From a virus (lineage: Duplodnaviria; Caudoviricetes), in the IMG/VR virus record IMGVR_UViG_3300029288_007089, positions 8,654 through 72,653 of that record: a stretch of 64,000 nucleotides of DNA. One strand, given 5' to 3'. Both the position numbers and the translations under genes were made by a program. This document shows, in pieces, positions 41,919 through 42,560 of this stretch (its first letter is position 1; every line of letters begins with the position of its first letter). Under the pieces are notes generated by a model. It saw only the letters and a list, made by a program, of their open reading frames with translations, was not told the origin of the DNA and made no database searches.

Positions 41919-42288
41919 CATGCTGGTGCGCAGCTACAAATACCGACTGTATCCTACACCAACGCAAGTGCGCCGCTTGTTCGCAATGTTGCGCCTGTCG
42001 CGCCTACTCTACAACCACATGCTGGGCTATCGAGAGGAGGAGCACTCCTCATGGGCGCTAAGCCGCGTAAGACTTCATGATTTCATGAAGCAACGGTTTG
42101 CCCGAAAGCTCCGTTATTATGCGGAGAGTGCTATGGCGAACGCTAAGCTGTGTAAGACGCCGCAATTGCGCGGCGCGGTGGTTAGTTCGCAAATCTCTGC
42201 CAATCCGGAGCAGCTGGAGGTCTGCGACGCGACACACTCTGCCGGCATCGAAGAAACGCCATATCTGGCGGAGACGGCGGCGCGATGA
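41919..42288 (+). pseudogene. Truncated TnpB/IS605 OrfB N-terminal HTH (no RuvC)
   Basis: MLVRSYKYRLYPTPTQVRRLFAML...RLLYNHML matches HTH_OrfB_IS605; ORF ends after about 123 aa. Confidence 0.75.
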
Positions 42289-42303
42289 CCGCCACCGGTG
42301 GCT

Positions 42304-42560
42304 GTTGCAACCGTCAACCTCCGGAGGTGGAGGGTGCTAGCACTATGGACGGTGGCTGGTCTGGGATGGCCGGCGTTGTTGCAACCGTCAACCTCCGGAG
42401 GTGGAGGGTGCTAGAGCCGTCAGACTTGCCGAGACGCGCCAAGACGAACTTGTTGCAACCGTCAACCTCCGGAGGTGGAGGGTGCTAGAATGCCGCACCT
42501 CCGGCCACAGATACGCGGTAAGCGTTGCAACCGTCAACCTCCGGAGGTGGAGGGTGCTAG
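42304..42560 (+). CRISPR. Mini CRISPR array B: 4 identical 37-nt repeats (GTTGCAACCGTCAACCTCCGGAGGTGGAGGGTGCTAG), 3 spacers
   Basis: Repeats at 42304, 42378, 42452, 42524; spacers 37, 37 and 35 nt; internal palindrome ACCTCC/GGAGGT; orientation uncertain. Confidence 0.95.

Follow-up and report, generated by a model that had tools for sequence, protein, structure and literature searches.

TranC nucleases have been described as CRISPR-associated intermediates between TnpB and Cas12 (PMC13565253, 10.64898/2026.03.27.714800). Short arrays have also been found in viruses. Cyanophage N-1 carries five 37-bp repeats and no cas genes, and its array is transcribed (PMC4916379). The Bathyarchaeia Chiyouvirus includes two mini-arrays, each composed of four repeats and three spacers, one of them with the repeat of the host (10.1101/2023.08.24.554615). 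As for type IV-B systems, 97.8% of their operons are array-less, and the complexes load non-specific RNA even when processed crRNAs are available (PMC7937560). For one virus, Fuxivirus, a IV-B locus has nonetheless been reported next to a mini-array of two repeats (10.1101/2023.08.24.554615).

The locus described here, array B, lies in a window of 64,000 nucleotides. The IMG/VR provirus record from which the window comes is 72.6 kb long and has a portal, a large terminase, a DnaB-like helicase and an integrase. The array B block is found within the accessory/lysogeny gene region, near the integrase. The features of the locus are as follows:

41764 to 41791, plus strand: predicted sigma-70-type promoter (TTGACT, 16-nt spacer, TG, TATAAT).
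About 41773 to 42566, plus strand: cassette ("module B": promoter, leader, tnpB stump and array), absent from related phages.
41798 to 41915, plus strand: structured 5′ leader of ~120 nt with two long, mutually exclusive helices.
41920 to 42288, plus strand: truncated tnpB/cas12-like ORF, P0001, 122 aa, with the N-terminal strand and helices only.
42304 to 42340, plus strand: repeat 1, 37 nt.
42341 to 42377, plus strand: spacer 1, 37 nt; target search empty.
42378 to 42414, plus strand: repeat 2, 37 nt.
42415 to 42451, plus strand: spacer 2, 37 nt; target search empty.
42452 to 42488, plus strand: repeat 3, 37 nt.
42489 to 42523, plus strand: spacer 3, 35 nt; target search empty.
42524 to 42560, plus strand: repeat 4, a perfect copy; the cassette ends 6 nt further.
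42570 to 42894, plus strand: ribosome-binding site AGGAGG (42570) and next phage gene (ATG at 42577/42580), with homologs of 86-90% nucleotide identity in contigs L056-L058.

Array B consists of four identical 37-nt repeats, GTTGCAACCGTCAACCTCCGGAGGTGGAGGGTGCTAG, that span positions 42304-42560 of the plus strand with a start-to-start period of 74, 74 and 72 nt. The four repeats and three spacers of the original prediction were confirmed at their coordinates, and the letters of the spacers were exactly as quoted there. Each spacer occurs only once, whether the window or the full 72.6-kb record is considered. The locus therefore has the make-up of a generic CRISPR array (at least three direct repeats of 23-50 nt that are nearly identical, with unique spacers of about the same length between them), and four perfect, regularly spaced 37-mers cannot have originated by chance. 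Spacer 3 is 2 nt shorter than spacers 1 and 2. The CTAG at the end of repeat 3 together with the first 16 nt of spacer 3 (42485-42504) is an inverted copy of the 3′ half of the repeat (15/20 positions), which may be a recombination scar or a chance similarity.

The gene in front of the array had been said to start at 41919 and to end 16 nt before the first repeat. The ORF and its adjacency to the array were corroborated, but the ATG is at 41920, one base off, and the stop codon ends at 42288, which leaves a gap of 15 nt. Residues 3-42 of P0001 matched the Pfam family HTH_OrfB_IS605 (E 5e-11), and its sole matches to defence proteins in PADLOC were positions 7-65 of the 458 in the Cas12f profile and 26-85 of the 488 in Cas12u4. 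Homology is thus restricted to the first ~60 residues of the TnpB/Cas12f/Cas12-U profiles, and the stump has the TnpB-type N-terminal motif YK(Y/F)R(L/I)YPT...Q. The WED core, RuvC and zinc ribbon are all absent from P0001, and no RuvC or zinc-ribbon remnants were detected in any frame, before or beyond array B. These results agree with the earlier description of a decapitated TnpB that lacks RuvC: beside the array there is a co-oriented TnpB/Cas12 N-terminal domain, and the RuvC-I, RuvC-II and RuvC-III motifs and TNB zinc ribbon of a type V effector are missing. The codon-position GC pattern is in the ORF frame right up to the stop codon, indicating that the stump resembles a 3′-truncated gene rather than out-of-frame debris. 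The locus also differs from an IS200/IS605 TnpB transposon in that tnpB is truncated and no Y1 transposase (TnpA) was found in the record; there are hairpins in the leader, with no relation found to a right end.

When P0001 was compared with 1.84 billion protein representatives, the only hits were P0001 itself, a spurious one, and P0004, a TnpB/Cas12f-like protein of 395 aa that is 40% identical to residues 3-65 of P0001 and is its best full-length relative. No intact relatives of the stump were found among longer proteins and no significant one in the PDB, where the match to LaTranC had an E value of 0.64. P0004 belongs to a locus at positions 1927-3516 of L005 (JGI metagenome contig Ga0180433_10001918, virus-like), in which an array of six repeats of 29-30 nt, unrelated to the array B repeat, starts 77 nt after the gene. 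Its RuvC and zinc-finger motifs, as judged by eye, seem intact, and the L005 locus is a candidate miniature type V system. Since P0004 precedes an array, the nearest full-length relative of the stump is CRISPR-associated. The apparent kinship between the stump and P0004 is a weak one, drawn from the most conserved TnpB motif only.

The limits of the cassette were apparent from the comparison with syntenic phages. The contigs of the relatives, L055 and L056-L061, have flanking genes that are 85-94% identical to those of this phage and are without the cassette. L056-L058 kept the homologs of 41519-41706 and 42580-43313 (86-94% nucleotide identity) with a conserved element of ~220 nt between them, and L055 has the same element before a different gene. 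Homology to L055-L058 ends on the left at about 41706-41772, and it resumes on the right at 42567 (L055, 16/16 nt across the ribosome-binding site) or at 42580 (L056-L058). These limits define the promoter, leader, stump and array as one unit of ~794 bp (~0.8 kb), which appears, from the alignments, to replace the conserved element in this lineage only. The right boundary, 6 nt past the last repeat, fits the array being the end of a discrete unit. No piece of the cassette was found in any fetched locus. The protein encoded directly upstream of the cassette (41264-41767) has one 87%-identical relative and a few others, and a search of IMG/VR with the upstream 603-aa protein returned zero relatives.

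Two further observations were made in these comparisons. The ~220-nt intergenic element (L056:2741-2964, L055:3834-4040, and likewise in L057-L059; in the window, 41773-42566 stands at its place) is structured. One of its hairpins, of 17 bp, has five compensatory pair changes and the other is invariant; neither a match in Rfam nor a copy in the window was found for the element. The RlaP-like gene (48880-49825, compared with L055:8547-9492) is 99.8% identical and its flanks 76-91%, which suggests recent recombination between these phages.

The predicted promoter matches 11 of 12 consensus positions and has an extended -10 element; it is identified by consensus match only. It is the sole promoter-like site on either strand within 41500-43000, and there is an overlap between its -35 box and the stop codon that ends the gene before it. 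The leader can fold into alternative helices at ~41800-41874 and ~41833-41906 (region 41760-41925: MFE -54.4 kcal/mol, z -3.4), a switch-like arrangement before the ribosome-binding site of the stump. The complementarity of the leader to the repeat was not above chance, and for this reason the leader is not an obvious tracrRNA. All the neighbouring genes from ~36 kb to 54 kb are on the plus strand, so that plus-strand transcription of the array is expected, and there is no plus-strand terminator-like site between array B and the downstream gene, which is therefore probably read through from the cassette promoter. Judging from these signals, one plus-strand transcript probably covers the stump, the array and the phage genes that follow, and a pre-crRNA is probably made.

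The interpretation that we favor, with confidence that is evenly balanced, is that the array B locus is a recently gutted TnpB-derived CRISPR cassette of the type V-U/TranC-like kind. The original prediction had offered three uses or origins for the array, of which the remnant of another type V system has the most support: the array is co-oriented behind the stump, P0004 also precedes an array, and the cassette is lineage-specific. The order of gene and then array is shared with the other CRISPR locus of the same phage, system A, as well as with L005. The type V assignment is one of gene adjacency only, because the repeat matches no known type V or other family. In its original layout, the cassette would have had its own promoter, an effector gene, a guide scaffold and a short array, as in type V-U, TranC or Cas12f. 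It would have entered this phage lineage replacing the conserved intergenic RNA-like element, and an internal deletion would then have taken away roughly the 3′ three quarters of the effector gene, together with the greater part of any scaffold, leaving ~120 codons almost directly fused to an intact four-repeat array. We infer this deletion rather than observe it, since no intact version of the cassette is found in public data. The promoter probably still drives a stump-array transcript and probably now serves the downstream phage genes. The repeats would be identical because the damage is recent and there was too little time for decay, and not because of selection. It had been pointed out before that the repeats are identical although the effector is gone; this is true, but selection is not needed to explain it if the deletion was recent, and in a cassette that is a recent, lineage-specific gain identical repeats are expected without it. 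As the phage has no matching nuclease, the guides are most likely unused and the array is most likely inert unless a host effector matches.

Some features of the locus count against a relic. Four perfect repeats would also fit ongoing use, and a near-consensus promoter in a region of accessory genes would be the look of a functional "moron". The array B repeat is, moreover, near-palindromic (26 nt at 85%). Near-palindromic repeats are commoner among those processed through a hairpin than among those that depend on a tracrRNA. The hairpin formed by the array B repeat has a predicted energy of -13.2 kcal/mol and is no more stable than those of shuffled sequences (z -1.4). In favor of a relic, a candidate anti-repeat, or degenerate inverted copy of the repeat, was located on the plus strand at 42189-42228, 75 nt upstream of repeat 1. 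Its duplex with the repeat has 30 pairs (5 of them G-U), covers almost the whole repeat and has an energy of -41.0 kcal/mol, a value equaled or surpassed in only 30 of 1510 tiles of 168 nt taken from the window (~2%). The position would suit the anti-repeat of a lost scaffold, and this is no more than suggestive, given that the repeat itself is near-palindromic. Another candidate, a degenerate copy of the repeat that would lie within the ORF (42098-42133), was rejected as not significant, its score being reached in 26 of 500 shuffles.

The strand of the repeat had been used as an argument in both directions: read on the plus strand it was thought to resemble type V repeats, and read on the minus strand to end in TTGCAAC as class 1 repeats do. 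This argument turned out to be uninformative, since GTTGCAAC is its own reverse complement and a minus-strand end in TTGCAAC is inevitable. Repeats that start with GTTGCAAC are found in class 1 cyanobacterial systems (PMC4916379) and in V-F1 (PMC10606334) alike.

The searches with the repeat bear on whether a host system could use the array. No Rfam family was found for it, either at the gathering thresholds or at E<=10. Among the 2.9 M viral contigs of IMG/VR, patterns of the exact repeat, of its ends only and of its core produced three single chance hits and no array. Patterns of the 5′ end plus core, partly degenerate, detected no array in 32 M genome contigs or 241 M metagenome records, and blastn of the repeat against phages and plasmids gave no match. 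The repeat accordingly matches no described repeat family and no second array in the collections searched. The host phylum is tentatively Chloroflexota, an assignment taken from the labels of the metagenome-assembled genomes (MAGs) hit by the Csf2 protein of the phage (Anaerolineales, Chloroflexi, Ardenticatenaceae and two others). In 401 Chloroflexota genomes, the ends-only pattern with 2 mismatches allowed found scattered single hits, at or below the control level, and when the whole array was compared by BLAST with 301 Anaerolineae genomes, only chance matches of 15-22 nt came up. The comparison with host CRISPR repeats that had been proposed yielded no match in the Chloroflexota genomes sampled for this tentative host phylum.

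The spacer search that had been suggested was also carried out, and zero protospacers were found in the collections searched. There were no targets in INPHARED phages, PLSDB plasmids or IMG/VR (first 22 nt of each spacer), nor in the 301 Anaerolineae genomes, the fetched loci of the relatives or the rest of the window and record; one metagenome scan found no target for spacer 2. The pattern scans were made with exact words only, so that diverged targets would escape them. Weak hits that seemed to pile up on spacer 1, and two of 21-22 nt to spacer 3, all in Anaerolineae genomes, were discarded: these were unrelated GC-rich similarities due to chance, which fell in different genes and not on one strand.

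Array B could instead be a working stand-alone mini-array, whose crRNAs are processed and used by host Cas proteins to exclude competing phages or plasmids. The host system would be of class 1 with Cas6 or would have a Cas12/TnpB-like effector akin to the lost one, and the stump would be debris. Because virus mini-arrays that borrow host Cas proteins are well documented, among them the precedents of cyanophage N-1 and Chiyouvirus, this remains the main rival, and it would account for the perfection of the repeats, including the terminal one, for the strong predicted promoter upstream with no terminator after the array, and for the location among accessory and lysogeny genes near the integrase. 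The GC content of the spacers, counted by eye, is similar to that of the phage. Against this stand the absence of a similar repeat array from the viral, metagenome and genome contigs and from the 401 Chloroflexota and 301 Anaerolineae genomes, and the lack of protospacers in the collections searched. Absence from genomes is weak evidence, since the host assignment is only tentative and the host species may be unsampled. Taking both sides into account, we regard use by the host as possible but less probable than a relic.

Phages carry repeat decoys of the RNA anti-CRISPR kind. The repeats of array B could act in this way, as RNA anti-CRISPRs or solitary-repeat-like RNAs that soak up host Cas proteins and for which the spacers are irrelevant. 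The zero spacer targets would then be of no consequence, and perfect, near-palindromic, hairpin-forming repeats behind a strong predicted promoter would be adequate. However, such a decoy would work only in a host with a repeat of that family, for which the searches of genome and metagenome contigs and of the Chloroflexota and Anaerolineae genomes came back empty; furthermore, regular and unique spacers of 35-37 nt are unnecessary for it. This explanation is in our opinion very improbable.

A user of the guides could also be sought inside the phage. System A includes a nuclease gene, P0002 (9728-11329, minus strand), and array A (9404-9580). P0002 is the only intact TnpB-type nuclease of the record. 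It has no similarity to P0001 and is without the HTH_OrfB domain, which occurs once in the record, in P0001. Matches to the zinc-ribbon family PF07282 were limited to the system A gene, a small ORF beside array A and a fragment near 46414. Just beyond array A there is a weak partial match to the Cas12f/TnpB zinc ribbon (8974-9087, minus strand, in the ORF at 8956-9318; E 1.8e-5, below the family cut-off). Cas1, Cas6 and TnpA were not found anywhere in the record. The earlier statement that the array A repeat is different was correct: it is also 37 nt long and is ~43% identical to that of array B, as estimated by eye, with little in common beyond the first six bases.

The crRNAs of array B might be used in trans by P0002, or with the extra scaffold copies of the phage. 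Both repeats start with GTTGCA, which would keep 6 of the 9 pairs of the anti-repeat duplex proposed for system A, and the third, stand-alone scaffold copy holds GACGGTTGC (59852-59860), a perfect complement of positions 4-12 of the B repeat. This 9-nt match, however, falls within a stem predicted for the scaffold and is close to the chance level once multiple testing is allowed for, and the duplex energies with the A scaffolds are at the null level. In addition to the repeats being otherwise unrelated, the 3′ end of the B repeat is unable to pair with the GTCACA loop of the pseudoknot proposed for system A, and the flanks of array B have no similarity to any of the three A-type scaffold copies. 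Sharing of guides with system A is for these reasons a distant prospect, even though P0002 is an intact nuclease.

The second candidate user, named as one option in the original prediction, was the type IV-B complex of the phage. The IV-B genes were indeed found ~8 kb downstream of the array, at 50253-54180, and code for Csf1, Cas11, Csf2, Csf3 and a PAPS-reductase-like protein. Array B and these genes are encoded by one strand of the phage, within a single accessory block, and the operon has no array of its own; array B is 8 kb away and Cas6 is absent. The proposal that array B supplies guides to this Csf complex was nonetheless not supported. Flanks of up to 10 kb were fetched for 28 loci with relatives of Csf2 (23 viral and 5 genomic, 45-73% identity), and they contained no array, not even a two-repeat one; one counter-example in the literature is the reported Fuxivirus locus, which adjoins a two-repeat mini-array. 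At least 10 unrelated genes, the integrase included, separate array B from the operon, and neither Cas6 nor Csf5 is present. The literature also argues against it, as a purified IV-B complex bound heterogeneous non-CRISPR RNA although crRNAs were supplied (PMC7937560). The csf1-cas11-csf2-csf3-cysH module was observed in 23 viral and 5 MAG contigs (L009-L036) that have no other genes in common with this phage. The occurrence of the module in otherwise unrelated contigs indicates that the IV-B cassette moves between unrelated phages, independently of the rest of this one, a further point against a link to array B. The chance that array B serves the IV-B complex is consequently slight. That the array is alive as a store of guides for any effector elsewhere in the phage, be it the IV-B Csf complex or the system A Cas12f-like nuclease, is on the whole improbable. 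If true, a IV-B complex or a heterologous miniature Cas12 would here take its guides, in nature, from an array foreign to it.

The gutted type V cassette, our preferred reading, is modest in its implications, as neither orphan arrays in viruses nor type V loci in decay are new. What the locus would offer is a clean, datable example of a TnpB-derived CRISPR cassette that lands in a phage, replaces an RNA element and loses its nuclease while the array is still pristine. The same 72-kb prophage also encodes a complete IV-B operon that lacks an array and a miniature Cas12f-like system, which is intact and accompanied by additional copies of its scaffold, and the co-residence of three RNA-guided modules makes it a convenient natural test bed for guide sharing between unrelated modules. 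Because the repeat and the stump have no relatives in very large collections, an unsampled lineage of compact RNA-guided nucleases probably resides in the presumed Chloroflexota host community.

Compared with known systems, array B has points in common with each of four. It resembles the orphan mini-arrays of viruses, which have 4-5 repeats and 3-4 spacers, in its size and in having no cognate effector in the virus; the resemblance to cyanophage N-1 extends to the repeat length of 37 bp and to spacers without database matches (PMC4916379). Those arrays match arrays of the host, whereas array B matches none found, and array B, unlike those of N-1 and Chiyouvirus, sits behind the stump of a nuclease gene. 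The type IV-B operon of the phage, 8 kb downstream, resembles others in that its own array and Cas6 are missing, as is usual (PMC7937560); no link between it and array B was found, and its relatives are array-less in the fetched flanks. With respect to type V-U, Cas12f (V-F) and TranC systems, the similarity is that of a TnpB-type gene followed by a short co-oriented array. The differences are a stump of only ~120 residues with no RuvC or zinc ribbon, an array without a convincing tracrRNA and a repeat that matches no described family. The P0004 locus of L005 differs in having a full-length effector of 395 aa and an unrelated 29-30-mer repeat, and it resembles the array B locus in being carried by a virus-like contig, with an array located 77 nt after the effector gene.
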